Part shown: in pieces, positions 16,281-61,252 of the stretch | Layout: each line of letters opens with the position of its first letter | Position numbering within the stretch: the first letter of the stretch is position 1 | Assembly (NCBI GenBank): GCA_963700295.1 | Contig: CAVOWY010000005.1 | Span: 17,405 to 81,404 of the forward strand | Length of the DNA stretch: 64,000 nucleotides | Direction of reading: 5' to 3' | From: an uncultured Actinomycetes bacterium | GTDB taxonomy: Bacteria; Actinomycetota; Coriobacteriia; Anaerosomatales; Anaerosomataceae | Position numbers and translations under genes: made by a program | Notes under the pieces: generated by a model | Databases searched by the model: none | Seen by the model: only the letters and a program-made list of their open reading frames with translations | What the model was told of the DNA's origin: nothing

Positions 16281-16286
16281 GCGCCG

Positions 16287-22529: not shown

Positions 22530-22537
22530 GGGCGGCC

Positions 22538-24036: not shown

Positions 24037-24040
24037 GGCC

Positions 24041-26588: not shown

Positions 26589-26589
26589 G

Positions 26590-27018
26590 CTATCGGCCGA
26601 CGATCTCCACGAGGCTGAGCTCGAACGTGAGGTCCTGGCCGGAGAGCGGATGGTTGAAGTCGAGGACGACATGGTCGTCGAGGACCTCGGAGACGGTCGC
26701 CGCCATCTGCTGACCATCGGGACTCTGCACCCCGATGACCATGCCCACCTCGGGCTCCATGTCCTCGAAGACATCGATCGGCACGTTCTGGAACGCCTCC
26801 GGATGGCGCTCGCCGTAGGCCTCATCCGAAGGGATGGTGACCGTTGTCGATTCGCCCACGACAAGTCCTGCTACCGCGGCCTCGAAGCCGGGGATCACGG
26901 ACTCCTCGCCGAGCGTGAACGTGAGCGGGTCGCGCCCTGCGCTGCTGTCGAACTCCGATCCGTCGGACAGCGTGCCCCGGTAGTGCACGCGAACGGTCTC
27001 GCCGGTTTGTGGATTCAC
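26590..27018 (-). CDS. FKBP-type peptidyl-prolyl cis-trans isomerase
   Basis: VHYRGTLSDGSEFDSS..., GLVVGE. Confidence 0.85.
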   Translation of the reverse strand: MNPQTGETVRVHYRGTLSDGSEFDSSAGRDPLTFTLGEESVIPGFEAAVAGLVVGESTTVTIPSDEAYGERHPEAFQNVPIDVFEDMEPEVGMVIGVQSPDGQQMAATVSEVLDDHVVLDFNHPLSGQDLTFELSLVEIVGR

Positions 27019-38616: not shown

Positions 38617-39477
38617 ATGGAGAGCAGGAGGGCGGACTCGCCCAGCGGCGACGCCGCGCTCGCGTCGTTCGTCCGCCGCGTGTGGGAACACTACCGCGAG
38701 CAGGGGCGCGATCTGCCCTGGCGCCGGACCGACGACCCGTACGCCGTGCTTGTCTCGGAGGTCATGCTCCAGCAGACGCAGGTGATTCGCGTCGTCCCCA
38801 AGTACGCCGAGTTCCTCGAGGCGTTCCCCACGGTCGAGACGCTGGGCACGGCGCCGCTCGACGAGCTACTGCGCGTCTGGAGCGGTCTCGGCTACAACCG
38901 GCGCGCCCTCAACCTCAAGCGAGCGGCCGAGACGATCGTGGCGGAGCATGGCGGCCGGGTGCCGGATACGCTCGAGGGCCTCACCGCGCTCCCCGGCATC
39001 GGTCATGCCACGGCCGCTCAGGTCCTCGCGTTCGCGTTCGACCTCGGCGTGCCGTTCATCGAGACGAACATCCGCAGCGTCTTCCTGCACGAGTTCTTCG
39101 GCGATGCCGAGGACGTGCCGGACGCCGCGATCCTGCCGCTCGTAGAGGCGACCCTTCCTGCCGAGGGGGCACGCGAGTGGTTCTGGGCGCTCATGGACTA
39201 CGGCACGCACCTGAAGGCGACGCTGCCCAACCCCTCGCGCCGCAGCCGCCATCACGTGCAGCAGGGTCGCTTCGAGGGGTCGAACCGCCAACTGCGCGGG
39301 CGGCTGCTCGTGGCGCTTGCCGAAGACGCCGGGCGTGTGGCCGGCTCCCGCGGGCTCGCCACCAACGTACTCGCCGAGGCGGTCCGCTTCGAGCCTGAGC
39401 GCGTGGAGGCGGCGCTCGCGGCGCTTCAGTCCGAGGGGTTCGTCGTCTCCGAGGACGGCCGCTGGCGCATCGGCTGA
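38617..39477 (+). CDS. HhH-GPD-family DNA glycosylase (MutY/Nth-like)
   Basis: LPGIGHATAAQVLAFAF helix-hairpin-helix. RBS GAGGGAGG. Confidence 0.65.
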   Translation: MESRRADSPSGDAALASFVRRVWEHYREQGRDLPWRRTDDPYAVLVSEVMLQQTQVIRVVPKYAEFLEAFPTVETLGTAPLDELLRVWSGLGYNRRALNLKRAAETIVAEHGGRVPDTLEGLTALPGIGHATAAQVLAFAFDLGVPFIETNIRSVFLHEFFGDAEDVPDAAILPLVEATLPAEGAREWFWALMDYGTHLKATLPNPSRRSRHHVQQGRFEGSNRQLRGRLLVALAEDAGRVAGSRGLATNVLAEAVRFEPERVEAALAALQSEGFVVSEDGRWRIG

Positions 39478-40662
39478 ACGCCGGTGGTGCGTGCGGCGTC
39501 GCGTTCGAGGATGCGCGCTGCTTCGTCCACGGGCAGGTTGCGGCTCGCGGCGATGCGCGCCGCGTCGTCGCTCTCCACCCGGAGTGCGCGCGTCCCGTCC
39601 GGCAGGTACGCCGTCTTGAACCGCGCCGTGCCGAGCGAGGTCTCGACCTCGGCCACATCTCGCTCCACCAGCCGGCGAGCAGCCGGCATCAAGCGGACGC
39701 CGAGCGTGCCGGTCTCGGCGATCACGCGGTCGGCGAGGCGCGCTGCGTCGGCCGCGGGCGCAAGGGCGGTGAGCAGCGTGGCCGCCCGCCCCTTCTTCAT
39801 CACGATGGGCGTCTGCCAGACGTCGAGCGCGCCTGCCTGTCGCAGTCGCTCCGAGGCGACGGCGAGCTCCTCGGGCGTGAGGTGGTCGATGTTGGTCTCG
39901 AGCACGACAACGTCCTCGGCATCCGATGCAGGCGGCATGGGTTCGCCGAGGAGCAGGCGGCAGACGTTGGGCGTTCCGAGATCGCGCGTTCCGCACCCGA
40001 CGCCCACGCGGCGGAGCGTCATCGGCGGGAGGGTGCCGAAGCCGGTGGCGAACGTGGCGAGCAGCGCCGCGCCGGTGGGGGTGGTGAGCTCCCCGGGTGC
40101 CGTGCCCGGCACGACGGGCATGCCGCGCAGCAGGAGCGCTGTGGCGGGCGCCGGCACCGGCAGCTCGCCGTGCTCGGTCATCACCGTGCCGCTGCCCACC
40201 GCTACCGGCGATGTCACGAGGTCGAGCACTCCCAGGTGGTAGAGCGCGAGCGACACGCCGAGGATGTCGGCGATGGTGTCGGCCGCGCCGATCTCGTGGA
40301 AGTGAACGTCCTCGGAGCTCCACGCCATGCACCTGCGCCTCGGCGCCTGCGAGGAGGCCGAGCGCGTGGAGCGCGCCGTCGGCCACCTGTGCGGGGAACT
40401 CGGCCGCCGGCGATCAGCTCGCTCAGACTCGAGCCAGTTGCGGCGGGGCGCGGCCGGGCTCCTCCACGTGGATGCCGATGCCGCTGATATCGTGCCGAGC
40501 TGCATTCGTGCGCCGACACGCGCACGGTGCCGAGGCCGAGCGTCTGGAGCGCCGTGCCGAGATCGCCGGGTCGAACCCGGCGTCGACGAGCGCGCCGAGC
40601 AGCTTGTCGCCTGAGACGCCCGTGGAGCAGTCGAGGTACGCGATCACTCGCTGCCGCGCCAC
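39426..40662 (-). pseudogene. larC: LarC-like nickel-insertion protein (DUF111), N-terminal third broken by several frameshifts
   Basis: IAYLDCSTGVSGDKLLGALVDAG, then homologous pieces in all three frames, then VHFHEIGAADTIADILG and an intact C-terminal ~270 aa. Confidence 0.65.
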
Positions 40663-41407
40663 CAGTCTGGTTGATGCGGCTTGCCATGGCTGCCGCGCCG
40701 AAGCCGTTGTCGATGTTCACGACCGCCATACCCGAGGCGCAGGCGTTGAGCATGCCGAGCAGCGCCGCGATGCCGCCGAGGTTCGCCCCGTAGCCCACCG
40801 AGGTGGGGACCGCGATGACCGGGCAGCAGACGAGCCCGGTGACGAGCGAAGGCAGCGCGCCCTCCATGCCCGCAACCGCGATGATCGCATTCGCGTCGCG
40901 CAGCAGATCCTCGTGGGCGAGCAGCCGGTGTACGCCCGCCACACCCACGTCGTAGAGGCGGGTCACGCGGTTGCCCATGACCTCGGCCGAGATCGCCGCT
41001 TCCTCGGCCACGTGCTGGTCGGCCGTGCCGCCGGTGGCGACCACGATGTGGCCGAGTGCCGGACGCTCGGCGCGGCGGTCCACGAGCAGGATCCGCGACT
41101 CCTCGAAGTAGCGGGCGTCGGAGGCCACCTGCGCCACCTTCTGGAAGTGCGCGGCGCTCGCGCGCGTGCCGAGGAACACCTCTCCATGCTCGAGGATCTC
41201 CCGGGCGATGGAGCGCACCTGCGACGCTGACTTGCCCTCGCACAGCACCACTTCGGCAAAGCCGCATCTGAGCGCGCGATGATGGTCGACCTTCGCCTCG
41301 CCGATGTCGGCGAACGGGAGGTGCTCGAGTCGCGCGAGCGCTTCATCGGCGCTCGACTCTCCACGGGCGACCGATTCCAGCAGCTCCCTCATGGTATTCG
41401 GATCCAT
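40660..41407 (-). CDS. larB: LarB-like PurE-family carboxylase; 3' end approximate because the frame runs on without a stop into the larC region
   Basis: MDPNTMRELL..., GVAGMEGALP, PurE-like fold. RBS CAGGAGGG. Confidence 0.7.
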
Positions 41408-41508
41408 CTGGCCCTCCTGGTCAAGCATCCGGTGAAGGCGTTTCGTACGACAATCCATCGTGAAGGTTATACACTGTTCAGACACGCAACAGGCGGGGGT
41501 AGCCCGGA

Positions 41509-43072: not shown

Positions 43073-43899
43073 ATGACGACCGTCGCCATTCCTCGGGCCC
43101 GCAGGGACGTTCAGCGAGGTGGCGGCTGCTCTCGCTCGGGCTGCCCGACGTGGAGCCGCTGCCATGCGTGACCATCGCCGAGGTGTTCGAGGCCGTGGAG
43201 CGCGGCAAGGCCGATGTCGGCGTGGTGCCGATCGAGAACTCGATCGAGGGCTCGGTGGTGGCGACGCTCGACGCGCTCGTGTTCGACTACGACGCTCGAG
43301 ATCCAGCGCGAACTCGTGCTCGACATCCACTTCTCGCTCGTGGCGGCGCCGGGCACGAAGCTGGCCGACGTCACCTCGGTGGTCGCGCATCCGCAGGCGG
43401 GCGGGCAGTGCCGCCGGTGGCTGGAGCGGAACCTGCCCGGTCGCCCGGTCGCGGCCGCGAACAGCAACGCCGAGGCGGTGCAGACGGCGGTCGGCAGCCC
43501 GGGCGTGGCCGCGCTCGGGACCGGCACTCGCCGCCGAGCTCTACGGCGCCGAGATCCTCGAAGAGGGCGTCGCAGGACTACGCGGGCAACCAGACGCGTT
43601 TCGTGGTGCTCGGCCGGGGCCTGCAGCCGCGCACCGGCCACGACAAGACGTCGCTCGCGCTGTTCATGAAGAAGGACAAGCCGGGCGCGCTCCTGATGAT
43701 CCTCTCCGAGTTCGCCTACGGCGACATCAACCTCACGAAGATCCAGAGCCGGCCCACCAAGCGCCAGCTGGGCGACTACATGTTCTTCGTCGACCTCGAG
43801 GGCCACGTGGACGACCCGCACGTGCGCCTCGCGCTCGACTGCCTGCGCCTGAAGCTGCGCGAAGTGAAGGTCCTCGGCAGCTACCCCGTCGCGCAGTAG
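43073..43899 (+). pseudogene. pheA: Prephenate dehydratase (PDT plus ACT domain) broken by at least 4 frameshifts
   Basis: MTTVAIPGPAGTF.., VGVVPIENSIEGSV.., TRF motif, and an ACT domain (LALFMKKDKPGALL..) spread over three frames. RBS GAGGAGG. Confidence 0.65.
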
Positions 43900-43999
43900 G
43901 TTCGACTTCCCCGTTCCCAACTGCGGCCCCATCTGTGATCACAAGGTATAAGCATATCGGAACAGTCCGATAATGAAACCGAGTAGCAGGGGGTTCCTC

Positions 44000-45281
44000 A
44001 TGAGCGATCAGGCGGTCGACTACCACCCGATGTGGGCCGAGCTCGGACTCGACCTGCCCACCCACGATGCGCTGCTCGGTGCGGTCGGACAGCTCTTCGG
44101 CGACGCGTACCTCACGCAGGAGAACCGCCCCGAGGGCATGGACTACCTCAACTTCGTGATGAGCGAGGTCCACGGCCTGCGCATCAAGGAGCTCGACGAC
44201 TTCCGCAAGTCCGGCGGCAAGGTATTCGGCACGTTCTGCCTGTACGTGCCCGAGGAGATCATCCGCGCGGCAGGCGGCTGGTGCGTGGGCCTGTGTGCCG
44301 GCGCCGAGTTCGGCTACGACCAGGTCGAGCAGATCATGCCGCGCAACACCTGCGCGCTCATCAAGGCATCGATGGGCTTCAAGCTCGCGCAAGGTGTGCC
44401 CGTACATCGAGTCGGCGGACCTCGTGATCGGCGAGACCACGTGCGACGGCAAGAAGAAGGCGTACGAGCTGCTCGGCGAACTCCACAACACGTGGGTGAT
44501 GGAGCTGCCGCAGATGAAGCGGCCCGAGGACGTCGCGATGTGGAAGGCCGAGATTCGCGAGCTGGTGAAGAAGGCCGAGGAGCTCACCGGCAACACCATC
44601 ACCGCCGAGAGCCTGCGCGCGTCGATCAAGGAAGTGAACGACAAGCGTCGCGCGCTGCAGCGCATCGCCGCGGCGTGCAAGGCCGCCCCGGCGCCGATCA
44701 GCGGCAAGGATCGTCTGCTCGCCACCCAGGTGGCCTTCTACGACGACGTCCCGCGCTTCACCACGATGATGAACGCGCTCGCAGACGAGCTCGAGGACCG
44801 CGTGGCTGCGGGCGAGGGCGTGGCTCCCAAAGAAGCGAAGCGCGTGCTCGTGACCGGTACGCCGATGGCGCTGCCGAACTGGAAGCTCCACGACATCATC
44901 GAGAAGGCGGGTGCCGTGGTGGTGGCCGAGGAGATGTGCACCGGCAGCCGCTACTACTCGCAGCTGGTTACCGAAGACGGCGCCTCGCTCGACGAGATGC
45001 TCGACGACATCGCCGAGAAGTACCTCGACATCAACTGCGCGTGCTTCACGCCCAACAAGGGCCGCATCGACGACGTGGTGCGCATGGCCAAGGAGTACGG
45101 CGCGGACGGCGTCATCGACTACTCGCTCCAGTTCTGCGGCCTCTACGAGATGGAGAGTCACGGCGTGGAGGCAGCCGTCCGCGAGGCAGGGCTGCCGGTG
45201 CTGAAGATCACCACCGACTACTCGATGGAAGACGTGGGCCAGCTCGCCACGCGCGTCGAGGCTTTCCTCGAGATGCTCTAG
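44000..45281 (+). pseudogene. HGD-D-family 2-hydroxyacyl-CoA dehydratase / double-cubane-cluster-type protein, with one frameshift near 44390
   Basis: N-terminal part in ORF 43973 and the remainder in ORF 44295. IGETTCDGKKK motif. Paralog of the gene at 52240-53418. Confidence 0.7.
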
Positions 45282-45285
45282 GCGC

Positions 45286-46032
45286 ATGCGGGTCCTCGGA
45301 CTGGATATCGGTTCCCGGAGCGTGGATGCGGTCTGGCTCGAAGATGGCCGGATCGTGGACTGGGCGGTGGCCGACTCGGGTTTCGACCCCGGGTCGGCCG
45401 CGGCCGTCTTCGTCGATCGTGGCGTGCACGATGCGATCGTCTCCACAGGCTACGGCCGCCATGCGGCCAAGGAGCGCTTCGGCGGGTCGGCGGTGACCGA
45501 GATCACCGCATACGGACTTGGCGCGTGGGCGCTGTTCCCCGAGGCGGCCTCGGTGCTCGACATCGGCGGCCAGGACACCAAGGTGATCTCGCTCGGGCAC
45601 TGCGGCCGCGTGGTGGATTTTGAGATGAACGACAAGTGCGCGGCCGGCACCGGCAAGTTCCTCGAAGTGATGGCCCGCGCGCTCGGCTACACGCTGGAGG
45701 AGATGGCCGACGAGGCACTTGCCGCCGAGAGCGGTGTGGCGATCTCGAGCATGTGCACGGTGTTCGCCGAGAGCGAGGTCACCGGGCTCGTGCATCGCGG
45801 CGAGGACCGCGCTCGCATCGCCCGCGGGCTGCACGACGCGATCGCCAAGCGCACGCTCGGCTCGCTCAAGCGGGTCAACGCCCAGGGGCCGCTGGTGTTC
45901 GCCGGCGGCGTGGCCAAGAACCCGGCGATGGTGGCACTGATCACCGGGGGATTCACGGGCGACGTGTGCGTGCCCGCAGAGGCGCAGATCGTGGGCGCGT
46001 ACGGGGCGGCGCTGTCCGCGGCCGAGGGGTGA
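45286..46032 (+). CDS. HgdC/BadF/BcrAD-type ATPase activator (ASKHA fold)
   Basis: LGLDIGSRSVDAV, DIGGQDTK, C(x)AAGTGKF (cluster-binding Cys) motifs. Confidence 0.85.
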   Translation: MRVLGLDIGSRSVDAVWLEDGRIVDWAVADSGFDPGSAAAVFVDRGVHDAIVSTGYGRHAAKERFGGSAVTEITAYGLGAWALFPEAASVLDIGGQDTKVISLGHCGRVVDFEMNDKCAAGTGKFLEVMARALGYTLEEMADEALAAESGVAISSMCTVFAESEVTGLVHRGEDRARIARGLHDAIAKRTLGSLKRVNAQGPLVFAGGVAKNPAMVALITGGFTGDVCVPAEAQIVGAYGAALSAAEG

Positions 46033-46038
46033 GGCCGG

Positions 46039-46308
46039 GTGTCCGGGGAGCGCGCGATCCTGATCGAGTTCGTCAACACATGACCGAGCTGTGACGAGTA
46101 CGCACGGATCGTGCGTGAGGTCGCTTCGAGATACGAGGGGAGGGTCGAGGTGCGAATCTACCAGGCCGGGCGTGACATGGCGTACCTAGCCAAGTATGGG
46201 CCCGTGATGCGCGGGACCCTCATCATCGACGAACGCATCCGCCTCGAGCATCTCACGCGACCGATCATCGAGGATGCGATCGCGCGTGCGGTCGAGGACG
46301 CCTCGTGA
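46039..46308 (+). CDS. Thioredoxin-like small protein (redox-active disulfide protein 2 type) with an in-frame TGA at the first redox Cys: UxxC selenoprotein candidate
   Basis: GTG 46039 (RBS GAGG) reads MSGERAILIEFVNT-[TGA 46081-83]-PSCDEYARIV..KYGPVMRGTLIIDER... The supplied ORF 46111-46308 is the same frame downstream of the TGA. Hairpin ACGCAC-GGATC-GTGCGT at 46100-46116, 15 nt after the TGA. Confidence 0.5.
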
Positions 46309-47393
46309 GCTTCCTCAGAGACACGCTTGCGGGCACCTGGCTGGTGCTAGCCGATGCCGCACCCTGGCTGCTGGTGAGCTACGTGCTCGCCGGCCTGATG
46401 CACGAGTTCGTGAGTCCGGAGCGGCTCCAGGCGCACCTCGGCAACAAGCGCCTGTCGTCGATTGTGAAAGCCACGTTCTCGGGCATGCTGCTGCCGATGT
46501 GCAGCTGCGGCGCGATTCCGCTCGGCCTGAGCCTGTACTACTCCGGTGCATACCTGGGGCCGGCCCTCGCGTTCATGGTCGCCGCCCCGATGATCAACCC
46601 TGCAGCCATCTTGCTGACTTACAGCCTGCTCGGCCCGCAGATCGCCACGATCTACGTCATCGGTGGCATCCTGATCCCGATCATCGTCGGCCTGATCGCC
46701 AACGCGCTCGGTGGTGAGCAACTGTACGCACAGGGCGTCGATGAGGTGTCGCGTGTGCAGCTGGCCGCGGCGCAGGGTACGCCGCTCAGGGATCGGCTGC
46801 GAGCCGGCCTCAGCTACGGGTTCGGCGACCTGGGCGTGGTCGTGAGCAAATACGTGGTGATCGGCGCGATTTCGGCCGGGGTTCTGTTCGCGCTCATCCC
46901 TGACACGTTCATCGATCGATACCTGGGCGACCCAGGGTTGCTGTCGCTCTTCGGCGTGAGCGTTCTCGGGGCGACCATGTATGTCTGCGCAGTCGGCCAT
47001 ATCCCGTTCATCGCAGCGATCGTGGCGGCCGGGGCGGCGCCCGGAACCGCGATTACGTTCCTGATGGCCGGCGCCGCCACCAACGTGCCCGAGTTCATCA
47101 TGATCTCGAAGCTCATCGGAAAGCGCACGGCCCTCTTCTACTCCGTGGTGGTCGTGTTCTTCGCTCTGGCGGCAGGTTGGTTCGCCAATGCCCTGATCGG
47201 GGACGGGTTCGTGCCGTTCATAGACCCGGAGCGCAGCGCCGGAACGATCGCGATCGCCAACTGGTTCATCATCACGGTCCCGCCCTGGCTTCAGGTGCTG
47301 AGCGCCGTCGCGGTCGTTGGTCTGGGGCTCCTCGCCTATCGGGGCAGGCTCACCGCGCTGTTCGCGCGCGTCCCTGCGGGGGCCGAGTCATGA
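46305..47393 (+). CDS. COG0701-type permease with a CxC motif (ArsP-like)
   Basis: LLPMCSCGAIPL motif, ~9 TM. GTG overlaps the stop of the thioredoxin-like gene, suggesting translational coupling. Confidence 0.8.
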   Translation: MSFLRDTLAGTWLVLADAAPWLLVSYVLAGLMHEFVSPERLQAHLGNKRLSSIVKATFSGMLLPMCSCGAIPLGLSLYYSGAYLGPALAFMVAAPMINPAAILLTYSLLGPQIATIYVIGGILIPIIVGLIANALGGEQLYAQGVDEVSRVQLAAAQGTPLRDRLRAGLSYGFGDLGVVVSKYVVIGAISAGVLFALIPDTFIDRYLGDPGLLSLFGVSVLGATMYVCAVGHIPFIAAIVAAGAAPGTAITFLMAGAATNVPEFIMISKLIGKRTALFYSVVVVFFALAAGWFANALIGDGFVPFIDPERSAGTIAIANWFIITVPPWLQVLSAVAVVGLGLLAYRGRLTALFARVPAGAES

Positions 47394-47881
47394 AGCGGAT
47401 CGCCGTGATCGCCGCCACGCTGGCCGCGCTCGTGCTGGCCGGATGCGCGCCTGAGACTGCCGCCGAGACCGTGACCACCGTGCCGGAGTCCAACGCGCTT
47501 GTGAACTGGTACGTGGGGCAGCACGCGGACACCCGCGTCGTTGCTTCGGCGCTCGGCGACGTCACCGCGGACGGCACCGATGACCTGGTCGTCATCTACC
47601 AGAAGGCTGACGACGAGGACCGGCGTTGGATGCGCGTGGTCGTTGGGGGCGACGAGCCGACCGCGACCGACGAGGTGCCGGCCCCTGTAGAGAACCAGCG
47701 CATCGACTTCCGCGACATCGACGAGCAAGCCCCCATTGAGTTCGTCATCCGGGGATCGAAAGCGGGCAACGTGGGCTTCGCGATCTTCCGGGTGACCGAC
47801 GGGAAGCTCGAGAACGTCTTCGGCGAGGACATGGATCGCTGCTGCGAAGCGCAGCCGCGCGTGACGCACCAAGCGTCCTAA
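47390..47881 (+). CDS. Hypothetical lipoprotein
   Basis: Lipobox LAGC. ATGA overlap with the permease stop. Confidence 0.5.
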   Translation: MKRIAVIAATLAALVLAGCAPETAAETVTTVPESNALVNWYVGQHADTRVVASALGDVTADGTDDLVVIYQKADDEDRRWMRVVVGGDEPTATDEVPAPVENQRIDFRDIDEQAPIEFVIRGSKAGNVGFAIFRVTDGKLENVFGEDMDRCCEAQPRVTHQAS

Positions 47882-47941
47882 AGGGTTCATCGGCGGATGG
47901 CGCCGTGCAGCACGTATGTATACCGAACAGGGAGGGAATGC

Positions 47942-49072
47942 ATGGACAGGTTCGGACGGGTGATCGCGCTGCTGCTGGCAGTGGTGCTCATCGCAGGGAT
48001 GGTCGCTGGTTGTGCGGTTGAGGACACGACGACCGGTGAGACGACCGAGGAGGAAGCGGTCGACGACTACACGGTCAAGCTCGGCTACTACAACTGCGAC
48101 CACATGCTCGCATCGGTCGTGGCGAACGACGCCGGCATCTTCGAGGAGATGGGCCTCGACGTCGAGCTCACCGGCAACGGCAACGTGCCCGAGGCGATGG
48201 CCGCCGGTCAGATGGACGTGGGCTACATCGGCACGGAGGGTCTGATCAAGGCGCGGGAGAAGGGATCGCCCATTTTCGTGGCTGCGTGCAATCACGTGGG
48301 TGGCTCGTTCTACCTCGTGGCCTCGAATGACATCAAGACCAAGGAGGACCTTGTCGGCAAGGAGCTTGGCCTTGCTCCGGACATCGACAAGACCGACGCC
48401 TACTGGGTACGCATCGCGAAGAACACCGGCATCCCGGTGGAGGCGAGCAACTACCAGCCGTACGCCATGGAGATCAAGGACCAGTTCCTCGCACTCACCG
48501 CCGGGCAGATCGACGGCTACGTGACCTGTGATCCGTGGGGCTCCGCTGCGGTCGTGGATGGCGTGGGCTGGATCGTCGGCGACGACACGCACATCCCGGG
48601 CACCGATGAGTACGGTGTGTGCTGCTCCTACGCGATGAACGAGGACTTCGCTGCCGAGCATCCCGAGCTTGCGGTGAAGATGGTGCAGGCGCACGCCAAG
48701 GCGATCCAGTACACATACGAGCACCCGGCCAAGGCCGCGAAGATCTTCGCCGAGAACTACGGCGTCAAAGACGAGGTCGCACTCATGACCATCTGGCACA
48801 AGCTCATCGCCGATGGACGCACGCTGACCTGGAAGATCGACGAGGAGCTCTACCAGAACGAGGTCGACTATGCGATCGAGGTCGGCACCATGGACTTCAC
48901 GCCATCGCTCGACGACTTCGTCAAGACCGACATCTACGACCAGGCCGAACTGGCTGACTTTGACGCGTTCATCGCAGACGAGGTCGACTCGGTCATGCCG
49001 CTCGACATGAGCTACGAGGACTTCAAGGCCTATGCGCTCGAGACTGACCGCGACTCCGGGCTTGAGCTCTAG
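47942..49072 (+). CDS. ABC transporter substrate-binding lipoprotein (NMT1/SsuA/TauA-like)
   Basis: Lipobox VAGC, RBS GGGAGGG, NMT1-like sequence. Confidence 0.75.
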   Translation: MDRFGRVIALLLAVVLIAGMVAGCAVEDTTTGETTEEEAVDDYTVKLGYYNCDHMLASVVANDAGIFEEMGLDVELTGNGNVPEAMAAGQMDVGYIGTEGLIKAREKGSPIFVAACNHVGGSFYLVASNDIKTKEDLVGKELGLAPDIDKTDAYWVRIAKNTGIPVEASNYQPYAMEIKDQFLALTAGQIDGYVTCDPWGSAAVVDGVGWIVGDDTHIPGTDEYGVCCSYAMNEDFAAEHPELAVKMVQAHAKAIQYTYEHPAKAAKIFAENYGVKDEVALMTIWHKLIADGRTLTWKIDEELYQNEVDYAIEVGTMDFTPSLDDFVKTDIYDQAELADFDAFIADEVDSVMPLDMSYEDFKAYALETDRDSGLEL

Positions 49073-49137
49073 CCGTACTCCAGAGCAGGAAGGAGCCGAG
49101 GCGGGGCGCCGCGCAGGCGGCGCTCCGCCCGTCCCCG

Positions 49138-49947
49138 ATGAAACGACTCGCACGCAGTGTGCTGGTGGTAGCGACGGTCCTTACTGTGGTCGTCTTGGTT
49201 CTTGTCGCCTCGTCGGCCTCACGTATCGACGAGTCCGGCGAGGGCGCCACAATCAACCTCGGCACGCCCGCTGACTCGGCGGGACTGCTAGGTAGCGTGC
49301 TGGATGGCGTCAGCGTGAACGGCGGGAGCGAGATCGTCGCCTACCCGCTCAAGGACTGCTGCACTACCAAGACCGAGTATGCGCTGTCGGTGGACTTGCT
49401 CGACGCGGCGCTTCTCTGTCCCGATGCGGCCGAGCGTCTTGTCGAGCGGGATGCGCGGTACGTGCGCGTGGGAGCTGTGGTGATGAACTCGGATGTGCTT
49501 GTGGCTCGCGGGGACGGTCAGCCGATCGTGGTCGTGGCGGTCGGTGTGAACCGGGACTATCAGGTGCAGATCGCACGGGAGCAGTGGGGTGCGGCCATCG
49601 ATGTGCGGCCAACGCTTTCCTCGGTGATCTCGCTGGCGGTGGCCGATGGTGAGGTCGACGCTGCGGTGGTCGATCTGCTGGATGCGCGTGCGCTCGTCAC
49701 CACGGGATCGGACGTGACTCCTGTCGAAGGCGACGTGGTCTCGTACGAACTCGTGGTGACGCGCGACTTCGCGGTGAGCGACGAATACGCGACCTTTCTC
49801 GACCAGATGGGCGATGCGGCCGAGAGCCTCAATCGCGCTGAGGTCTTCAGCTCGACGGTCCGTTCCTGGACGGGGACGGCGATGACGAAGGAGGAGGTGG
49901 ACCTGTGGAGAGACTCGAAGATGTGCTTCGTGAGGCCGAGCCCCTGA
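49138..49947 (+). CDS. Hypothetical secreted protein, possibly a degenerate substrate-binding-like protein
   Basis: N-terminal TM/signal segment only. Confidence 0.35.
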   Translation: MKRLARSVLVVATVLTVVVLVLVASSASRIDESGEGATINLGTPADSAGLLGSVLDGVSVNGGSEIVAYPLKDCCTTKTEYALSVDLLDAALLCPDAAERLVERDARYVRVGAVVMNSDVLVARGDGQPIVVVAVGVNRDYQVQIAREQWGAAIDVRPTLSSVISLAVADGEVDAAVVDLLDARALVTTGSDVTPVEGDVVSYELVVTRDFAVSDEYATFLDQMGDAAESLNRAEVFSSTVRSWTGTAMTKEEVDLWRDSKMCFVRPSP

Positions 49948-50736
49948 CGGCGCCGCCCGTGTCCGCAGCGCGCGGCGGCGTGCTCGGGTGGTTGAGCAGA
50001 CAGCAGTGGCTCATCTCGATCGCAGCGATCTTGATAGTGTGGCAGTTCGCCGCGGCGCACTATGACGCGGAGATCGATCCTGCCCTACCCGGTGGCGACC
50101 CTGAAGGCGCTCGCCTTTGCCTTTGTGGACGCCGAAACGCTCATCAATCTCGCCATCACCGTGCGAAGGGTGCTGATCGGCTTCGTCTGGGCCCTCGGCA
50201 TCGGTATCCCACTTGGTATGGCGATGGGCTCCTCCAAGACGATCAGGCGGCTCGTGGGTCCCATCGCGGACTCCGTGCGACAGGTCCCGATCATGGCGTG
50301 GGTCCCGCTCACGATCGTGTGGTTCGGTCTTGGGGACGGGCCCACGGTATTCCTCATCGCCATGGTCGGCCTGTTCCCGGTCCTGCTCTCGACGATCGCA
50401 GGCGTGGACAGCATCTCGAAGGACTACTACAACGCCGCGCGCAGCATGGGGGCGAACCGCTCGAGCGTGATACGTAACGTGGTGATTCCTGCGGCGATGC
50501 CGGACGTTCTGACCGGCATGAGGCTCGCGCTCTCGGCCGGCTGGATGTCCGTCATTTGAGCAGAGTTCATAGCGACGAGTGCAGGTTTCGGGTACTCGAT
50601 GGTAAGGGCGCAGACGATGATGCAGACCGACCGGCTGGTCGCGCTGATGATCATGGCCGCCCTGATAGGATTCTCGATCGATCGGCTGCTGTTGATGGTC
50701 AACCGGCGGCTCGCGCCGTGGAGGTTCGCGGCGTGA
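49905..50736 (+). pseudogene. ABC permease (SsuC/TauC-like) with one frameshift near 50060 and an in-frame TGA at 50557-50559
   Basis: N-terminus in ORF 49905, the core in ORF 50062, and the protein continues in the same frame after the TGA (AEFIATSAGFGY...). Confidence 0.6.
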
Positions 50737-51521
50737 GGCGTCTGTGCATCGATAGCCTGTCCAAGGAGTTCACCGGTCGGGGTGGCACGCACCGCGTCCT
50801 CGACAACGTGTCACTGTGCGTCGAGCCCGGTGAGTTCGTGACCCTGCTCGGGCCGTCGGGATGCGGCAAGACGACGCTCCTCACGATCGTTGCGGGATTC
50901 CAGTCGGCCACCAGCGGGCGCGTGTCGCTCGACGGCATGGCGCTCGACGGGCCTGGTCCGGACCGCGGCTTCGTGTTCCAGGACTACGCGCTCTTTCCGT
51001 GGATGACGGTGCGCGACAACATCCTGTTCCCGATGCAGCAGGTGGGAATGGATCCGCCAGATCAGGAGCGCAGACTCACCGAGCTGCTCACGATGTCGCA
51101 CCTGGCCGGCAGGGAGCACCTCTACCCCCATCAACTGTCGGGCGGCATGAAGCAGCGGACGGCGTTCGTGCGGGCCCTCGCAACGCGGCCAGAGGTGCTC
51201 TTGATGGACGAACCTCTCGGCGCGCTCGACTACCAGATGCGCATCCGGCTGCAGGCCGAGCTCGAAGCCATCTTCTGCGCCGAGCGAACGACGATTCTCA
51301 TGGTCACGCACGACGTGGAAGAAGCCGTCTACCTGAGCGATCGCGTTGTGGTGATGGCACTCGGCGGCGGCCACGTCGTCGCCGACGTCCGTATCGACAT
51401 GGAGCGTCCGCGGCACCGGCGAAGCGAGGCCTACCACCGCTACAAGGACGACCTGATGGAAGCGCTTGAAGTGGCGATGGGACCAGCGGGCGACAACGGC
51501 ACCACCGGATTCATCGCGTGA
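50733..51521 (+). CDS. ABC transporter ATP-binding protein (SsuB/TauB-like)
   Basis: GPSGCGKTT (Walker A), LSGGMKQR, LLMDEP. GTG overlaps the permease stop. Confidence 0.8.
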   Translation: MRRLCIDSLSKEFTGRGGTHRVLDNVSLCVEPGEFVTLLGPSGCGKTTLLTIVAGFQSATSGRVSLDGMALDGPGPDRGFVFQDYALFPWMTVRDNILFPMQQVGMDPPDQERRLTELLTMSHLAGREHLYPHQLSGGMKQRTAFVRALATRPEVLLMDEPLGALDYQMRIRLQAELEAIFCAERTTILMVTHDVEEAVYLSDRVVVMALGGGHVVADVRIDMERPRHRRSEAYHRYKDDLMEALEVAMGPAGDNGTTGFIA

Positions 51522-51537
51522 GGAGAAGGGGAGGCAG

Positions 51538-52209
51538 ATGCATACGTTCAAGGACTACCCGACCGAACAGCTGCTGATCGACAGCCTGTGGTCCCGGATG
51601 ACGCCCACTGAGCGGGAGTTCCGGATCGAGGTGCTCAACGCGATCATCGGCGCCGGCGGACCTGTGGGGCCGGCAGACGTGGCATGGGTCGCCGAGGACC
51701 ATGGTGGCGCCTCGGCAGCGGACCTGTTCGATGCGATCGCCGCGAAGCATGTGATCGTAGTAAGCGACGGGCTCGTGCAGTTCGCCTACCCCCTCTCCGC
51801 CCTCGCCACCAATCACACCGTGCACCTCGCCGATGGCCGCTCGTTCAGTGCCATGTGCGCGATCGACGCGATGGGCTCGGCGCTCACGCTCGGACAGAAC
51901 ACGGTGGTGGAGGACAAGTGCAGCGTGTGCGGCACGCCGATCACCGTGCGGGTCGTGAACGGCGCGCTGGCGAGTGTGGATCCTCCCACCGCACACGCGA
52001 TCCACGCGGACCTGTCGGGGACGGGAGAGGACTGGGCCGCCAGCTGTTGAAACGTCATGAACTTCTTCTGTACGAAGAAGCATTTTGAGGAGTGGCGTGA
52101 CGCATCGGGAACCAGCATGGACGGGTTGTTCATCCTTGATGCGGAAGACGCATTCAAGGCCGCCGACATCGTGTTCGGCCGACATGAGGAGCGTGCGACG
52201 GGGAAGTGA
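51538..52209 (+). CDS. merB: Organomercurial lyase (MerB) homolog with an in-frame TGA at the position of catalytic Cys159/Cys160: selenoprotein candidate
   Basis: RBS GGGAGG. SAMCAIDAMG matches MerB AWCALDTLI (Cys96/Asp99). CSVCGTPITV matches CAATGAPVSL. ...AASC-[TGA 52048-50]-NVMNFFCTKKHFEEW continues in the same frame and matches MerB SFCCHVHFFASVPTAEDW. Hairpin CTTCTTC-TGTAC-GAAGAAG at 52062-52080, 11 nt after the TGA. Confidence 0.55.
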
Positions 52210-52239
52210 GCGTGCGCCGCAGGTAGGCAGCGGAGGGCT

Positions 52240-53418
52240 CTAGATCATCTGCTCCACGAACGCCTCGATGCGCGTGCGCAGCTGGCCGAGGTCCGACTCG
52301 GAGTAATCGGTCTCGAGCTTGAGGTACGGCAGCTTGAGGACGTCTCGCGTGTAGCGCCCCACCTCTACCGACTCAACGTTGAAGGTGTGGCAGCTCTGCC
52401 AGACGGTGTCGATGACGCCGTCCACGCGGTAGTCGACCACGCAGCGACCGAGGAGCTCGGTGCGCCCGTTGTTCGGGCTCATGCATGCGCACGGGATGCC
52501 GAGCGTGTGGCGTGCGAGCGCCTCGAACGGATCGCCGTCCTCGTCGATCACGCGGTCGTACATCTTGATGCCGCTGCACGCGTCGTGACACACGACGTGT
52601 GCCCCCGCCTCTTCGGCGAGGCGCATGACCTTGTTCGTCTCCGGTGCCATGGGCGTGCCGGTGACCAAGATGCGCGGCCGGGCCGGAGCGGTCCGGGACT
52701 CGGCACGCCGCGCCGCGGACTCCTCCTCGAGCACTGAGATCAGTTCGCGCAGCTTCTCGTGGTAGGGCTCTTCGTCCACGAGGAAGCCTCCGCCGTCTTG
52801 CACGGTGAGCATCTGGGTCCAGGTCATCGGGGGCTCGTCTTCGGCGAAGAACGAGGCCACCTTCCGAAGGAGCGCAGCGCACTCGTTGGACTCGCGGATC
52901 GCGGCGCGCAGCGATTCCGTGGTGATCGTGCCGCCGGTGGCCTCCTCGACGAACGCAGCAACCCCGCGGATCTCGCTGAGCCACCAGGAGAACGCCGGCT
53001 CAGCACCGTCGCCGCCCGCAAACGGGAGCTGCATCACGTGAACCGGTTTGAGCGCGCGAAGCAGCTCGAAGACCTTCTTCTTGCCATCGCACGTGGTCTC
53101 GCCGATGAGCGCGTCGGAGAAATGGAAGAACGGACAGGTGTCGGTGATCGCGAGACCATACGACGACTTGATGAGCGGGCAGAAGGCCCGGGGGAGATCT
53201 ACTTCCGCCGCGGAGATGGCGTTGTTGTCATTCCCGCACAGCGAGACGGGTATGGCGCCGGCAGCGCGAACGAGTTCGGCCGGCATGAAGCCGCAATAGA
53301 GGCCAACCACTTTCCGGCCGTCGTCCTTCGCGTGCTTGAAGTCGACTCGCGCCCAGTCCGCCATCTCGGCGAACTCCTCCACCAGCGCCGCGATACGCTC
53401 GTTGCCCCCATCCGGCAT
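52240..53418 (-). CDS. HGD-D-family 2-hydroxyacyl-CoA dehydratase / double-cubane-cluster-type protein (intact paralog)
   Basis: IGETTCDGKKK plus conserved Cys positions. 392 aa. Confidence 0.8.
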   Translation of the reverse strand: MPDGGNERIAALVEEFAEMADWARVDFKHAKDDGRKVVGLYCGFMPAELVRAAGAIPVSLCGNDNNAISAAEVDLPRAFCPLIKSSYGLAITDTCPFFHFSDALIGETTCDGKKKVFELLRALKPVHVMQLPFAGGDGAEPAFSWWLSEIRGVAAFVEEATGGTITTESLRAAIRESNECAALLRKVASFFAEDEPPMTWTQMLTVQDGGGFLVDEEPYHEKLRELISVLEEESAARRAESRTAPARPRILVTGTPMAPETNKVMRLAEEAGAHVVCHDACSGIKMYDRVIDEDGDPFEALARHTLGIPCACMSPNNGRTELLGRCVVDYRVDGVIDTVWQSCHTFNVESVEVGRYTRDVLKLPYLKLETDYSESDLGQLRTRIEAFVEQMI

Positions 53419-53525
53419 GAGCCGTCCCCCTGTCTCGACGTGTCATATTGTTTGCTGATTGTATCAATCAGCGATGTAGATATAAACTCGGGGTGCGCAC
53501 CAGCTTCGCCCCGGCAGGAGTGCTC

Positions 53526-54164
53526 ATGAGCGACATGATCCAGATGATGAAGTCCTTCCTCGCCGACTGGCGACGTTACGGCAAGGACGCCAGGAAGCAC
53601 GACGCGTGGATTCGCAAGCATGCCCGTAATCGCGGGTGGAGCGTGAACTCCCGCTGGATGATCTACACGAACCTCAAGCTGTGGATCGCCGACTCGGAGG
53701 CGATGTACGGGCGACGCTACTGTCCGTGCTACGAACCTTCGGGCGACCCTGACCTCGACCGCAGCCTCATCTGTCCCTGCCAGTTCGCGCAGGAGGAGAT
53801 CGACACGACGGGTTGGTGCCACTGCACGCTCTTCGGGCGGGGCGACCTCACCCCTGCGGACTTCAAGCGCGCCGAGGACCAGCTCATGAAGGAGTATCGC
53901 GGCACCCCCCTCAAGCTCGTCGAGGGCGTGCTCGATACGCGCGGCCAGCACATCGATGTCTTGCGCGGCATCCCCGTACCCGATGCGATCCACCAGGTGA
54001 AGCGGGCGATCGGAGCCGTCGGTCTGCCGCTCGAGGTGATCGTTGCCACCAAGCCCGAGGGGGAGCACCTGCTCCGACTTGCCGAGATGCGCGGGCTTTC
54101 CGCCAACCTGGAGGAGCACGACGACCACTTTCGGGTCATGCTCACGCCGGGTTCGGTCGGCTAG
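53526..54164 (+). CDS. Ferredoxin:thioredoxin reductase catalytic-subunit-like domain (CPC..CPC..CHC) fused to a ~110-aa C-terminal domain of unknown function
   Basis: YCPCYEPSGDPDLDRSLICPCQFAQEEIDTTGWCHCTLF matches the FTR beta-subunit 4Fe-4S/disulfide motif. RBS GGCAGGAG. Confidence 0.7.
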   Translation: MSDMIQMMKSFLADWRRYGKDARKHDAWIRKHARNRGWSVNSRWMIYTNLKLWIADSEAMYGRRYCPCYEPSGDPDLDRSLICPCQFAQEEIDTTGWCHCTLFGRGDLTPADFKRAEDQLMKEYRGTPLKLVEGVLDTRGQHIDVLRGIPVPDAIHQVKRAIGAVGLPLEVIVATKPEGEHLLRLAEMRGLSANLEEHDDHFRVMLTPGSVG

Positions 54165-54939: not shown

Positions 54940-55121
54940 CGCGCGGGCGATTAGCCCCCCCAACCGGGCGGAACACTCACTGTGTACGCACGCGACCGCC
55001 TCTGAGGCCGGCCGCGTGCTCGGTGTACCCTGACGGCGGCTGTCGGGGGCGCCGCAGGGCCCGGCGTTCTGGATCGGACAGTGAGGGGCACGGGCGGGCA
55101 GCCCGCGTGAAGGGAGCGACC

Positions 55122-57480
55122 ATGAGAGGGTCGAGGATTCTCAGCCTGCTGGTGTGTCTGACCGTGATCGCCGGAGTGGTAGTTGCGGCACCGGTGCCAG
55201 CAGCACGGGCGGGTACCTCGCCGTGGCGGTGGCAGAATCCCCTGCCGAACGGGGAGACTCTTAAGGCGGTGTGTCTGGCACCTGGAGCGGGCTCTTCGGC
55301 GGTCTGGACCGTGGGTGACTACGGCACGGTCCTCTATTCGGCAGACAACGGCGCTACCTGGAGCGCGAAGGCCTCGGGTACGACCGCGAGCCTCGCGGGC
55401 GTGGACATGATCAACGACAACACCGGCTGGGCGGTTGGAGCGTACGGGACTGTGGTCAAGATCTCGGGCGGCGCGTGCTCCGTGCAGGCCGAGCCCACGG
55501 GGCAGCACATCGCTGATGTGGACGTGATCGACGCAACCCACGCGTGGGCCGTTGGCTCGAACGGCGCGATCATTCGGACGGTCAACGGCACCGACTGGAC
55601 GACCGTGAGCTCGCCCACTATCCAGTACCTGACCGCAGTCCAATTCCTGAATGCGAACGAAGGATGGGTAGCCGGCTACAACAACGCGCTCTACTACACA
55701 GCCGACGCCGGTTCCACCTGGCGATTCAAAGGCACGGCTGATGGTGACTTCCAGATCGCCGACTTCTGGGTGGACGGAGACACCGTCTGGGCGGTCGGTC
55801 GTGATTCGACGTTCGCGAACCGCGTCTACACGGCGACCGACGGCAAGATTCACACGAACCTTCCCGGGGATGCCCCGTTCTACGCCGGCGTACCCATCGG
55901 CGGTCTCTCGACTGCCGTGACGTCTCTCTGCTACCTGGACAGCACGCACCTGTGGCTCACGTCAGCCGCCGGCCAGGTCATGTGCTTCAACGGGACGACC
56001 TGGACCGAGCAGACGACTCCCTACGGCTACCAATGGCTGTACGGCGTCGACTTCAGGAGTGCTTCCACGGGGGTCGTCGTGGGCAGCGGTGGTGCCATCG
56101 GCAGGACGAGCACGGGCGGTTCGTCGTGGGCGGCACGCACGAGCTACACCATCAACCCGGTCTACGGTCTGGACTTCGTGTCGCTCACGACCGGCTACAC
56201 CGTGAGCGGACAGGACGTCCTGAAGACGACCGATGGCGGCCAGTCCTGGGCGGCCATGGGCATGGGCGTGGGCCACGAACTGCTCAACGTGGACTTCCTC
56301 GACGCGACTCACGGCGCAGCTGTTGGGCAGAGCGGCACGGTCATGCTCAACACCGGCGGTGCGGCTTGGACGCCGGCGCCCTACTCGAACCCCGGCATCG
56401 AGCTCCGGGGTGCGAGCTACCAGAGTCCGACGCGGCTCTGGGCATGCGGCATCAACGGCACCATCTGCTGGTGGGATGGGGGGGCGTGGCACACGGTTGC
56501 TGACAGCAAGGCGGGCACGAACCTCCTGTTCGACATCGACTTCTTCGACGCGAACCACGGCATCGCGGTGGGCGTGAACGGCATCGTGGTGTACACGACC
56601 GACGGCGGCACCACATGGACCGCCGGTGATTCGGGCGAGGGCCCCGGAGATCGCATCGTGGGCGTGGACATGGTGAGCAGCACGGTCGGGTTCATCGTTG
56701 GCGACGACGACAACGGCACCAACTCCGGCATGCTGATGAAGAAGACGACCGACGGCGGCGCCACCTGGACGCCGATGACGCCCCCCACCTCGGAGAGCTA
56801 TAAGCCGCTTGAGGACGTCTCCTTTGCCGATGTGAACAACGGTTGGATCGTTGGCGGCGCGGGCAGTTGGTACCACACGACCAACGGCGGCGACACCTGG
56901 ACCAACGAGGTGGGGAACGGCGCGTGGCCGGTCTCTGTCTTCGCGTTCAGCCCCACGGCCGCCTGGGCCGGCACCAACTACGGCGGCATCCTCACGACCA
57001 CGCCCGCTCCGTCCACCGTCGTCCTTGTCCCCGTCTACCGCTTCTACAACTTCACCAACAGCACGCACTTCTTCACCCCATCGCTCGATGAGGCGAACTA
57101 GGTGATCGCCAACTACCCGAAGGTCTTCCGCTACGAGGGCATCTGCTACTACACCAACCCCGCCAACAACACGCAGCCGCTCTACCGCTTCTATAACCGC
57201 GTGAGCGCAAGCCACTTCTATACTGCGTCGCTCGACGAGGCGAACCACATCCTGGCCACCTGGCCGAATATCTTCACGCTCGACGGCCCGACCTACGCCG
57301 TGAACCCGGCGCCGGTCCCGAACAGCGTGCCGGTCTACCGGTTCTTCAACCTGCGCAACGGCAGCCACTTCTACACCGCGAGCGCCGAAGAGGCGGACAT
57401 GGTGATCGCCACCTGGCCCACATCTATCGCTACGAGGGGCCTGCGTTCTGGATCGGGCAGTGAGGGGACGGGCGCACAGC
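55122..57480 (+). pseudogene. Secreted BNR/Asp-box repeat beta-propeller protein with C-terminal YRFYN...SHFYT repeats, broken by an in-frame TAG (57099-57101) and a frameshift near 57430
   Basis: Signal peptide. Repeated S/T-x-D-G-G-x-T/S-W units. The repeat region continues after the TAG and its last repeat ends off-frame. Confidence 0.55.
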
Positions 57481-57500
57481 CTGCACGAGAGGAGCCGACG

Positions 57501-59507: not shown

Positions 59508-59552
59508 GCCGAGACGGGCGAGTTCGAGGGGAGCTGGGATGAGGTCCGAAGG

Positions 59553-61214: not shown

Positions 61215-61252
61215 GGGTGCGGGCGGGGAGCTCGCTCGGAGGGAGTCGTGGC

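Follow-up and report, generated by a model that had tools for sequence, protein, structure and literature searches.

A predicted SAO operon set in a double-cubane protein operon of an uncultured actinomycete

Genes of the locus and their families

The window analysed here is a stretch of 64,000 nucleotides from an uncultured Actinomycetes bacterium (contig CAVOWY010000005.1, positions 17,405 to 81,404). Between positions 43973 and 54164 it carries a composite redox locus, the genes of which had been listed in an earlier note made from the sequence alone. Open reading frame (ORF) listing, translation, Pfam and NCBIfam recovered every gene named in that list where it had been placed. According to their family profiles, eight consecutive genes of the locus (46039-52209) are assigned to saoT-E-C-X-B-P-A-L from the system termed selenocysteine-assisted organometallic (SAO). 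They lie among genes for two predicted double-cubane cluster proteins (DCCPs), an ATP-dependent activase and a fusion protein related to the catalytic chains of ferredoxin:thioredoxin reductase (FTR) and to ferredoxin:disulfide reductases (FDRs). The predicted features are the following:

44000..45281, plus strand: DCCP1, double-cubane cluster protein (HGD-D family), about 426 amino acids; PF06050 at 416 bits, NF040772
45286..46032, plus strand: ATP-dependent activase or DCCP reductase (BcrAD_BadFG, HgdC-like), 248 amino acids; PF01869 at E=1e-44, TIGR00241
46039..46308, plus strand: saoT, thioredoxin-like selenoprotein with motif U15-P-S-C18, TGA at 46081-46083; NF040730
46305..47393, plus strand: saoE, efflux permease of the ArsP/SO_0444 type, CSC at residues 66-68 (MCSCG); NF040736, PF03773 (ArsP_1)
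47390..47881, plus strand: saoC, small lipoprotein with lipobox LAGC and a Cys-Cys pair (TGC TGC, 47840-47845); NF040734
47942..49072, plus strand: saoX, extra substrate-binding lipoprotein (NMT1/SsuA-like) with a CC pair and two more conserved Cys; NF040735
49138..49947, plus strand: saoB, substrate-binding protein of an ATP-binding cassette (ABC) transporter, Cys-Cys form with C74, C75 and C94; NF040727, without a Pfam match
49905..50736, plus strand: saoP, ABC permease selenoprotein (BPD_transp_1), TGA at 50557-50559 at the gating position; NF040733
50733..51521, plus strand: saoA, ABC ATP-binding subunit, GTG start overlapping the saoP stop (GTGA); NF040729
51538..52209, plus strand: saoL, MerB-like lyase selenoprotein with C107, D110 and C170-U171, TGA at 52048-52050; NF040728, PF03243
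52240..53418, minus strand: DCCP2, second double-cubane cluster protein, 392 amino acids; NF040772, 7-Cys motif
53419..53525, no strand: divergent intergenic region between DCCP2 and the FDR-like gene, 107 bp, with a sigma-70-like site and a palindrome
53526..54164, plus strand: fusion of an FTR catalytic-type domain (CPC-X14-CPC-X12-CHC) with a TusA/SirA-like domain, 212 amino acids; PF02943

The sao genes are contiguous and all on the plus strand, with gaps of at most 65 bp or overlaps between them. SAO has been defined as a nine-gene operon found in 52 of 15,511 representative genomes, all of anaerobes (bioRxiv 10.1101/2022.07.06.499078; J Bacteriol 2023), and curated hidden Markov models (HMMs) exist for all nine families (NCBIfam; Haft & Gwadz). 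On these NCBIfam models, SaoT reaches 116 bits (NF040730, cut-off 65), SaoE 457.5 (NF040736, cut-off 325), SaoC 146 (NF040734, cut-off 80, the profile ending at the CC pair), SaoX 470 (NF040735, cut-off 300), SaoB 188 (NF040727, cut-off 140), SaoP 378.6 (NF040733, cut-off 295, in one stretch spanning its TGA) and SaoA 378.3 (NF040729, cut-off 360). SaoL is matched by Pfam PF03243 at 97 bits, again across its TGA. The signature Cys and selenocysteine (Sec) positions of the SAO components (T, P, B, X, C, E) are all present. The SaoX gene call has 376 amino acids in the independent Logan assembly L086, made from the same sample (run ERR11561443). Exact-sequence look-ups of SaoX and of the FDR-like protein matched only short Logan contigs from this run, and that of the activase gave no match. 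That at least nine families pass curated thresholds within one co-directional block, itself found again in other genomes, is far beyond chance.

For related loci, GTDB species representatives were scanned with an alignment of the fusion, which gave 80 loci, and then searched with the window proteins. Overall, 85 loci were examined, denoted below by L and a number, and the gene neighbourhood recurs in related genomes. SaoB is of the CC form and not of the Cys-Sec form, and this is also the case in all relatives of the same lineage. A perfect 6-bp hairpin, GCUGCG-AAG-CGCAGC (47841-47855), overlaps both Cys codons of saoC.

The pairing of SAO with DCCPs and activase has already been published, with double-cubane proteins at most 5 kb from the cassette in 40% of cases (bioRxiv 10.1101/2022.07.06.499078), and the composition of SAO is unchanged by the locus described here. 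The earlier note had spoken of an uncharacterised system. This holds in the experimental sense, and a 2026 review still lists the SAO proteins as predicted and of unknown function. However, the system has been named, published and provided with curated HMMs.

The GC content of the cassette is that of its surroundings, and its flanks are housekeeping genes (kdp, a fhaA-pstP-rodA-pbpA-pknB cluster, suf, larBC and pheA). A repeat search for insertion scars around the cassette returned only the paralogy signal between DCCP1 and DCCP2, and no transposase was present among the 43 window proteins scanned. With matching GC, housekeeping flanks and no repeat scars, a recent mobile origin is thus not indicated.

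This context also bears on whether the locus could be a mercury or organomercury resistance determinant, that is, a variant mer operon. A MerB homologue with its catalytic triad and a CxC efflux permease are present, and in one published species an authentic MerB takes the place of SaoL (Haft & Gwadz). However, the 43 scanned proteins include no MerA or MerR, as had been noted before, and no MerT or MerP either. SaoL reaches only 50 bits on the MerB model, the cut-off of which is 200, and the locus sits in a chromosomal housekeeping context free of mobile-element genes and of any GC anomaly. Moreover, Haft & Gwadz have argued that an ATP-driven importer with two binding proteins would be a poor design for detoxification. 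We consider a mer determinant very unlikely and rejected it in favour of the SAO assignment.

Selenocysteine codons and reading frames

The three in-frame TGA codons, in saoT (46081), saoP (50557) and saoL (52048), are assigned to Sec, because relatives hold TGA or Cys in the same columns and hairpins follow each codon. The UxxC thioredoxin-like protein and the TGA-containing MerB-like gene of the earlier list were both borne out. In the SaoT column, where the motif reads T-U-P-S-C, L011, L012, L013 and L015 have TGA and L087 has Cys. The SaoP column shows TGA in L012 and L015 and a Cys codon (TGC or TGT) in L008, L011, L013 and L087, and the SaoL column, within a C-U motif, has TGA in L008, L011, L013, L015 and L087. 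Homology runs through the codons, as seen from the uninterrupted SaoP match and from the Pfam MerB domain across the SaoL codon. Comparative folding identified a conserved 7-bp hairpin that begins 18 nt past the UGA of saoT. Another 7-bp hairpin, with a UGUAC or UGUGC loop, follows the UGA of saoL; its 7 pairs are all retained in 6 sequences, and 2 of them show compensatory changes even though the encoded residues are altered thereby. A hairpin after the saoP codon is seen in the Sec forms only. These Sec/Cys pairs and covarying hairpins, similar to selenocysteine insertion sequences (SECIS-like), back the recoding calls of Haft & Gwadz. They also carry a lesson for annotation, namely that an in-frame TGA in such an ABC permease or MerB-like gene should be read as Sec.

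The reading frames of the locus are interrupted at two further places. The frame of saoP changes near 50070 through a single extra G at position 50076 of the window. Over 5,221 bases, the sole difference between L086 and the window is this G, which L086 lacks. Since removal of the extra G restores the gene, saoP is considered intact. The SsuC-like permease that had been described as damaged is therefore an intact SaoP, its TGA at 50557 falling on the predicted Sec position of the family and its frameshift being a G of the assembly. The frameshift reported for the first HGD-D gene is really in the window sequence. It lies near 44394, where CAAGGTG (between 44391 and 44401) contains one G too many, and removal of this G restores the spacing of the paralog. 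A search of the protein database found no intact DCCP1 with 100% identity, the best match being 90% identical. We think that this frameshift is probably an assembly error too.

Taken at face value, the frameshifts in DCCP1 and saoP and the three in-frame TGA codons could be real lesions of a locus in decay. However, the saoP frameshift is missing from the independent assembly, each of the three TGA codons occupies a known Sec position, is conserved between species and has a hairpin after it, and the catalytic motifs are all intact. Moreover, housekeeping genes of the window are frameshifted as well. The pheA gene (43089-43893) switches frame at least four times, while larC (39426-40505) and sufC (37688-38239) match their Pfam profiles only from positions 111 and 55 onward, which suggests that their N-terminal parts are missing. 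Breaks of the same kind in housekeeping genes speak for an assembly prone to indels and not for decaying genes. We regard decay as highly improbable and rejected it, and the frameshifts in this assembly are best treated as errors. The larB ORF (40214-41485) was seen to continue into out-of-frame sequence.

Double-cubane proteins, the fusion and their neighbourhood in relatives

Both HGD-D genes are assigned to the double-cubane cluster proteins rather than to the dehydratases. On NF040772, DCCP1 scores 491 bits and DCCP2 445 bits (cut-off 350; NCBIfam). The 7-Cys signature of the double-cubane ligands is present in the two paralogs, at C80/99/118/148/313/346/379 in DCCP1, with the spacing C-X18-C-X18-C-X29-C-X164/166-C-X32-C-X32-C in both. 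At the first and fourth gaps, this spacing departs from the published pattern by no more than one or two residues. In the comparison with the Protein Data Bank (PDB), run for DCCP2, the solved DCCP (6ENO/7YYL) was matched at E=3e-72, BzdN at 4e-18 and the dehydratase beta subunit 3O3M_B at 2e-14; for DCCP1 the contrast is given by the NCBIfam scores. The paralogs are thus far closer to the solved DCCP than to dehydratases, in keeping with the reductase family to which the earlier note had assigned them. Both checks that the earlier note had proposed on this account, the conservation of the neighbourhood and the ligand signature of the paralogs, came out in favour of its reading.

The same results decide on whether these genes could encode subunits of a 2-hydroxyacyl-CoA dehydratase for amino-acid fermentation, with the rest of the locus unrelated. 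PF06050 and the activase family are indeed common to dehydratases, and many database records call close homologues "2-hydroxyacyl-CoA dehydratase". However, the dehydratase-beta model gives only 122 bits for DCCP1 and 75 for DCCP2 against a cut-off of 700, and the benzoyl-CoA reductase models are also far off. The locus contains no alpha-subunit partner and no CoA-transferase, and the two genes lie about 7 kb apart on opposite strands and are only 38% identical. The dehydratase reading, hardly credible in our view, is effectively refuted by the HMM scores, the 7-Cys motif and the PDB matches.

At 38% identity, DCCP1 and DCCP2 are old paralogs. Relatives of DCCP1 are 75-90% identical over the full 426 amino acids. 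The activase scores 203 bits on TIGR00241 (cut-off 125), and in 11 related loci it directly follows DCCP1. In the lineage of the window, DCCP2 was found only where sao genes are present. A TATAAG-type motif was observed 48-80 nt upstream of the DCCP1 start in L006, L010, L012, L015, L018, L087 and the window, with the form GTATAAG in the window (43946-43952), L012, L015 and L087; these genomes are GC-rich. As the probable -10 box of the operon promoter, it would leave a 5' leader of about 40-70 nt before DCCP1.

The fusion matches PF02943 (FeThRed_B) at 49.5 bits (cut-off 22) and, weakly, the NCBIfam model "FtrB double-selenoprotein" (52 bits against 160). Structure prediction from 59 homologues gave a confident AlphaFold2 model (pLDDT 94.5). 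With this model, Foldseek matched the N-terminal domain to 7PWE, 4TPU and 7BZK, that is, to FDRs and FTR catalytic chains, with probability 1.00; for 7PWE the root-mean-square deviation (rmsd) was 1.8 A over 87 columns, within the N-terminal ~110 residues. The C-terminal domain was matched to the SirA-like 3HZ7 (TM 0.76 on the target, rmsd 2.7 A), and some homologues of the fusion match PF01206. The 59 homologues show no change at C66PC68, C83PC85 and H99-C100, and C98 is kept in at least 90% of them. The TusA-like domain carries the motif R-G-(L/I)-P-V-P-D, with Ile or Leu at the position of the reactive Cys of TusA and no Cys in the domain. The CPxP motif of the TusA reactive Cys is therefore absent, though the fold matches. 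No gene for an FTR variable subunit adjoins the fusion, which is single-chain, like the FDRs. Our literature search found no report of FDR-TusA fusions or of a link between DCCPs and FTR.

In the divergent region between DCCP2 and the fusion, a sigma-70-like site lies on the minus strand (53486-53458), overlapped by a perfect 7-3-7 palindrome, CTGATTGTATCAATCAG (53455-53471), which occurs once in the window. This palindrome could be an operator; statistically it does not exceed chance, and L008 does not share it.

The closest relatives (55-84% identity) are metagenome-assembled genomes (MAGs) labelled Coriobacteriia, Actinomycetes or Actinomycetota. DCCP1 lies upstream, on the same strand as the fusion, in 12 of the 14 close loci with enough upstream DNA, and in 10 of those 12 the activase stands between them. 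L002 is a fifteenth locus with the order DCCP1-activase-fusion, in which the activase stop overlaps the fusion start. The same three genes occur without sao in L002, L005/L017, L006, L010, L018, L019 and L022. By contrast, sao genes are present in 5 of the 14 close loci (L008, L011, L012, L013 and L015). L011, L013 and L015 have the order DCCP1-activase-fusion-saoTECXBPAL-DCCP2, with DCCP2 on the plus strand, and L012 follows this order up to saoL, within which its contig breaks off. L011 has a 4-bp overlap between the FDR-like gene and the start of saoT, and in L012 and L013 the FDR-like gene stands directly upstream of saoT. In L008, saoP-A-L is followed, past extra genes (a second activase/DCCP pair, a NifU-like protein and SaoD), by DCCP2 on the minus strand and the fusion on the plus strand, as in the window. 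L087/L088, from an Actinomycetota MAG, read DCCP-activase-saoTECXBPAL-NifU-like-SaoD-DCCP2 without the fusion, and the Firmicutes examples have sao with or without activase and DCCP, and no fusion.

DCCP1, the activase and the FDR/TusA-like fusion thus form a lineage-specific conserved operon that is independent of SAO, while DCCP2 accompanies the sao genes. In the window, the cassette and an inverted DCCP2 stand between the activase and the fusion. Consequently, the FTR-like protein, which the earlier note had counted as part of the system of the locus, falls outside SAO proper and belongs, in relatives, to the DCCP1-activase operon with or without sao. The hosting of the cassette by this operon is an unreported feature of the lineage. 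Outside Actinomycetota no conserved neighbour of the fusion was found beyond close Sulfurimonas relatives, with the exception of the Clostridiales contig L027, and a general function of the fusion therefore cannot be read from its context.

L008 and L022 belong to one MAG (7-NCT_026) with two copies of the FDR/TusA-like gene, one in a DCCP1-activase-fusion-PHP operon without sao and the other beside sao, after an inverted DCCP2. Given these two copies, the arrangement of the window may stem from duplication or rearrangement of the operon and not from a simple insertion.

The loci also differ in accessory genes. L011 (about 15950-16290) and L013 (about 16150-16450) have an extra small gene between saoA and saoL, for a PASTA-domain lipoprotein ending in C-Y-R-C-R, which is not in the window and is outside the nine published sao families. 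A NifU-like scaffold and SaoD lie between saoL and DCCP2 in L008 (7324-8042, 9660-9995) and L087 (8918-9641), and in L008 a DsrE/YedF-like ORF ends directly before the start of the FDR-like gene. These accessories, all of the sulfur/selenium relay type, vary among loci, and none is in the window.

Elsewhere in the window, positions 17845-26864 hold an actinobacterial cell-division and signalling cluster (FhaA-like protein, PP2C phosphatase, RodA-PBP fusion, Ser/Thr kinase and PASTA protein). Taken with the Coriobacteriia or Actinomycetota labels of the nearest relatives, this cluster assigns the organism to Actinomycetota. A multihaem c-type cytochrome is located at 7098-8261, a DUF362 protein adjoining a poly-ferredoxin at 12013-14625, and large secreted repeat proteins at 55023-63274. 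The latter run, just downstream of the PHP gene, begins with a Ycf48/BNR-like protein, followed by FG-GAP and DUF5648 proteins.

Proposed mechanism and comparison with known systems

We lean, with some reserve, towards reading the locus as a chromosomal SAO operon, saoTECXBPAL, embedded in a double-cubane reductase operon and acting on organometal(loid) compounds. The mechanism draws on Haft & Gwadz and on synteny; composition, motifs, recoding and synteny were read directly. In this scheme, SaoX, SaoB and SaoC would capture a small molecule bearing a soft metal(loid) or chalcogen outside the cell by means of their Cys-Cys sites, and SaoP2-SaoA2 would carry it inward past the two gating selenocysteines. 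Once in the cytoplasm, the molecule or its organic part might be reduced by the DCCPs, which the ATP-hydrolysing activase would feed with ultra-low-potential electrons. SaoL could then cut the carbon-metal(loid) bond with its Cys-Asp-Sec triad, SaoT (UxxC) could shuttle or reduce the bound species, and SaoE (CSC) could export the freed metal(loid). The FDR-like fusion may re-reduce a selenylsulfide or disulfide, for example on SaoT, with electrons from ferredoxin or from the activase; its action on SaoT is a reasonable guess from the protein's predicted fold and gene order. The reductive handling of organometal(loid) or organosulfur compounds suggested in the earlier note is close to the published SAO and double-cubane hypothesis, and to that extent was supported in part.

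It has to be considered that SAO might handle organosulfur or organoselenium compounds or inorganic selenium, and not a metal, by import of the TauABC/SsuABC type followed by a sulfur/selenium relay. SaoX, SaoP and SaoA are indeed nearest to taurine, sulfonate and nitrate ABC components, and the accessories in relatives are all of sulfur/selenium relay types (the DsrE-like SaoD and a NifU-like protein in L087 and L008, the DsrE/YedF-like protein in L008, and the TusA-like domain). Moreover, 955 of 970 strong DCCP hits fall in SelD-containing genomes (bioRxiv 10.1101/2022.07.06.499078). However, SaoL has the MerB fold and keeps the metal-binding Cys/Asp/Cys(Sec) triad, SaoE belongs to the family of ArsP and the SO_0444 Cu-Zn efflux protein and carries the CSC motif, the CC and CU pairs of the extracytoplasmic binding proteins are typical of soft-metal ligation, and the TusA-like domain is devoid of the persulfide-carrying Cys. 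A chalcogen substrate, the main rival, is held to be rather unlikely, and the organometal(loid) reading of SAO is retained.

Several observations weigh against that reading and against parts of it. SaoL falls marginally below its own model (NF040728, 138.3 bits against a cut-off of 140; NCBIfam). The profile stops just short of the Sec, beyond which C170-U171 is present and 52 further residues follow, and we take SaoL to be a member in substance, judging from these residues and from the TGA conserved in five relatives. The CC pair of SaoC is not C-terminal and is followed by an 11-codon tail and TAA (47881). Tails of 2-18 residues after the CC pair also occur in L011, L012, L013 and L015; in the lineage of the window, then, the predicted SaoC does not end in its CC pair. 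SaoD was not found in the 64-kb window by tblastn (E<=0.01) with the verified SaoD of L087 as query (NF040732, 178.8 bits, cut-off 169); according to Haft & Gwadz, SaoD is not in every SAO locus (bioRxiv 10.1101/2022.07.06.499078). DCCP1 carries a frameshift in the window as given. The single hairpins after the TGA codons are not significantly stabler than shuffled sequence (z = -0.6 to -2.0), and because of these weak single-sequence scores we relied on comparative folding. The 64-kb window contains no sel genes (selA/B/D) and no tRNA-Sec, Rfam and ARAGORN finding there two ordinary tRNAs and no known RNA family. Sec decoding thus rests on comparative evidence. The fusion is also part of DCCP operons that have no sao genes, and in many other phyla it stands by itself, so that its link to SaoT is weak. 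Finally, our literature search found no experimental test of any SAO component in any organism, and it is for this reason that we infer what the substrate is, in which direction it is transported and what part the DCCPs play.

It is tempting to propose that DCCP1, the activase and the FDR/TusA-like protein act as one module, which would couple ATP-energised ultra-low-potential electrons to the reduction of disulfides, selenylsulfides or persulfides and, where sao genes have been recruited, would regenerate the Sec and Cys proteins of SAO. This proposal is speculative and we would not call it probable. If true, it would provide a first physiological partner and reaction class for the double-cubane proteins and a mechanistic anchor for SAO, which occurs in Clostridioides difficile, counts among the densest known operons of selenoproteins and has the only reported Sec-bearing ABC transporter subunits. 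The DCCP-activase pair being operonic with an FDR-like protein, and sao lying at exactly that operon, could be a bridge between two unexplained systems. In addition, the window provides a clean example of SAO in Actinomycetota, a phylum not mentioned in the main text of the published paper.

Compared with SAO of Clostridioides difficile (saoDTECXBPAL), the window has the same eight families in the same order, minus saoD, while the gene order in C. botulinum is saoTECXLBPAD (bioRxiv 10.1101/2022.07.06.499078). The predicted Sec in SaoT (UxxC), SaoP (gating residue) and SaoL (CU) is shared with the published systems, as are the CSC of SaoE and the CC pairs of SaoX, SaoB and SaoC. Adjacent double-cubane proteins and activase, as in 40% of the published loci, and a chromosomal, non-mobile context are likewise shared. 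By contrast, the host of the window is a high-GC Actinomycetota (Coriobacteriia-like) MAG. The main text of the SAO paper names Firmicutes, spirochetes and deltaproteobacteria, and not Actinobacteria (bioRxiv 10.1101/2022.07.06.499078); PGAP already names SaoX in an Actinomycetota MAG. The window further differs by the absence of saoD, the CC form of SaoB, the CC pair with 11-residue tail of SaoC, and the position of the cassette between a DCCP1-activase pair and a pair formed by DCCP2 and the FDR-TusA-like gene.

With DCCP and DCCP-R of Carboxydothermus hydrogenoformans (6ENO, 7YYL; Jeoung & Dobbek; PMC9351452), the locus shares the NF040772 family, the 7-Cys pattern and an adjacent BcrAD/HgdC-type ATPase. 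However, in the window two paralogs, 38% identical, share a single activase, DCCP1 is extended at its N-terminus by about 40 residues, and in this lineage an FDR-like/TusA-like gene is co-operonic, which is not described for the characterised enzyme. SaoL shares PF03243 with MerB and MerB2 (3F0P, 5C17), its Cys107, Asp110 and Sec171 aligning with the catalytic positions of MerB (reference triad Cys96 / Asp99 / Cys159) and Sec171 with the lone catalytic Cys of MerB2 (5C17). SaoL differs from MerB by the predicted Sec in place of the second catalytic Cys and by the CU dipeptide. It scores 50-51 bits on the equivalog models NF033555 and NF009710 (cut-offs 193-200) and has no mer operon context.

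Where TusA has its reactive Cys-Pro, the fusion domain has I/L-P-V-P-D. The fusion shares CPC...CPC...CHC and the N-terminal fold with the FDRs (M. acetivorans 4TPU, Desulfotalea psychrophila Grx-FDR 7PWE) and with the plant and cyanobacterial FTR catalytic chain. It differs from them in carrying a C-terminal TusA/SirA-like domain, and not a rubredoxin or glutaredoxin, and in being co-operonic with DCCP and activase in its lineage.

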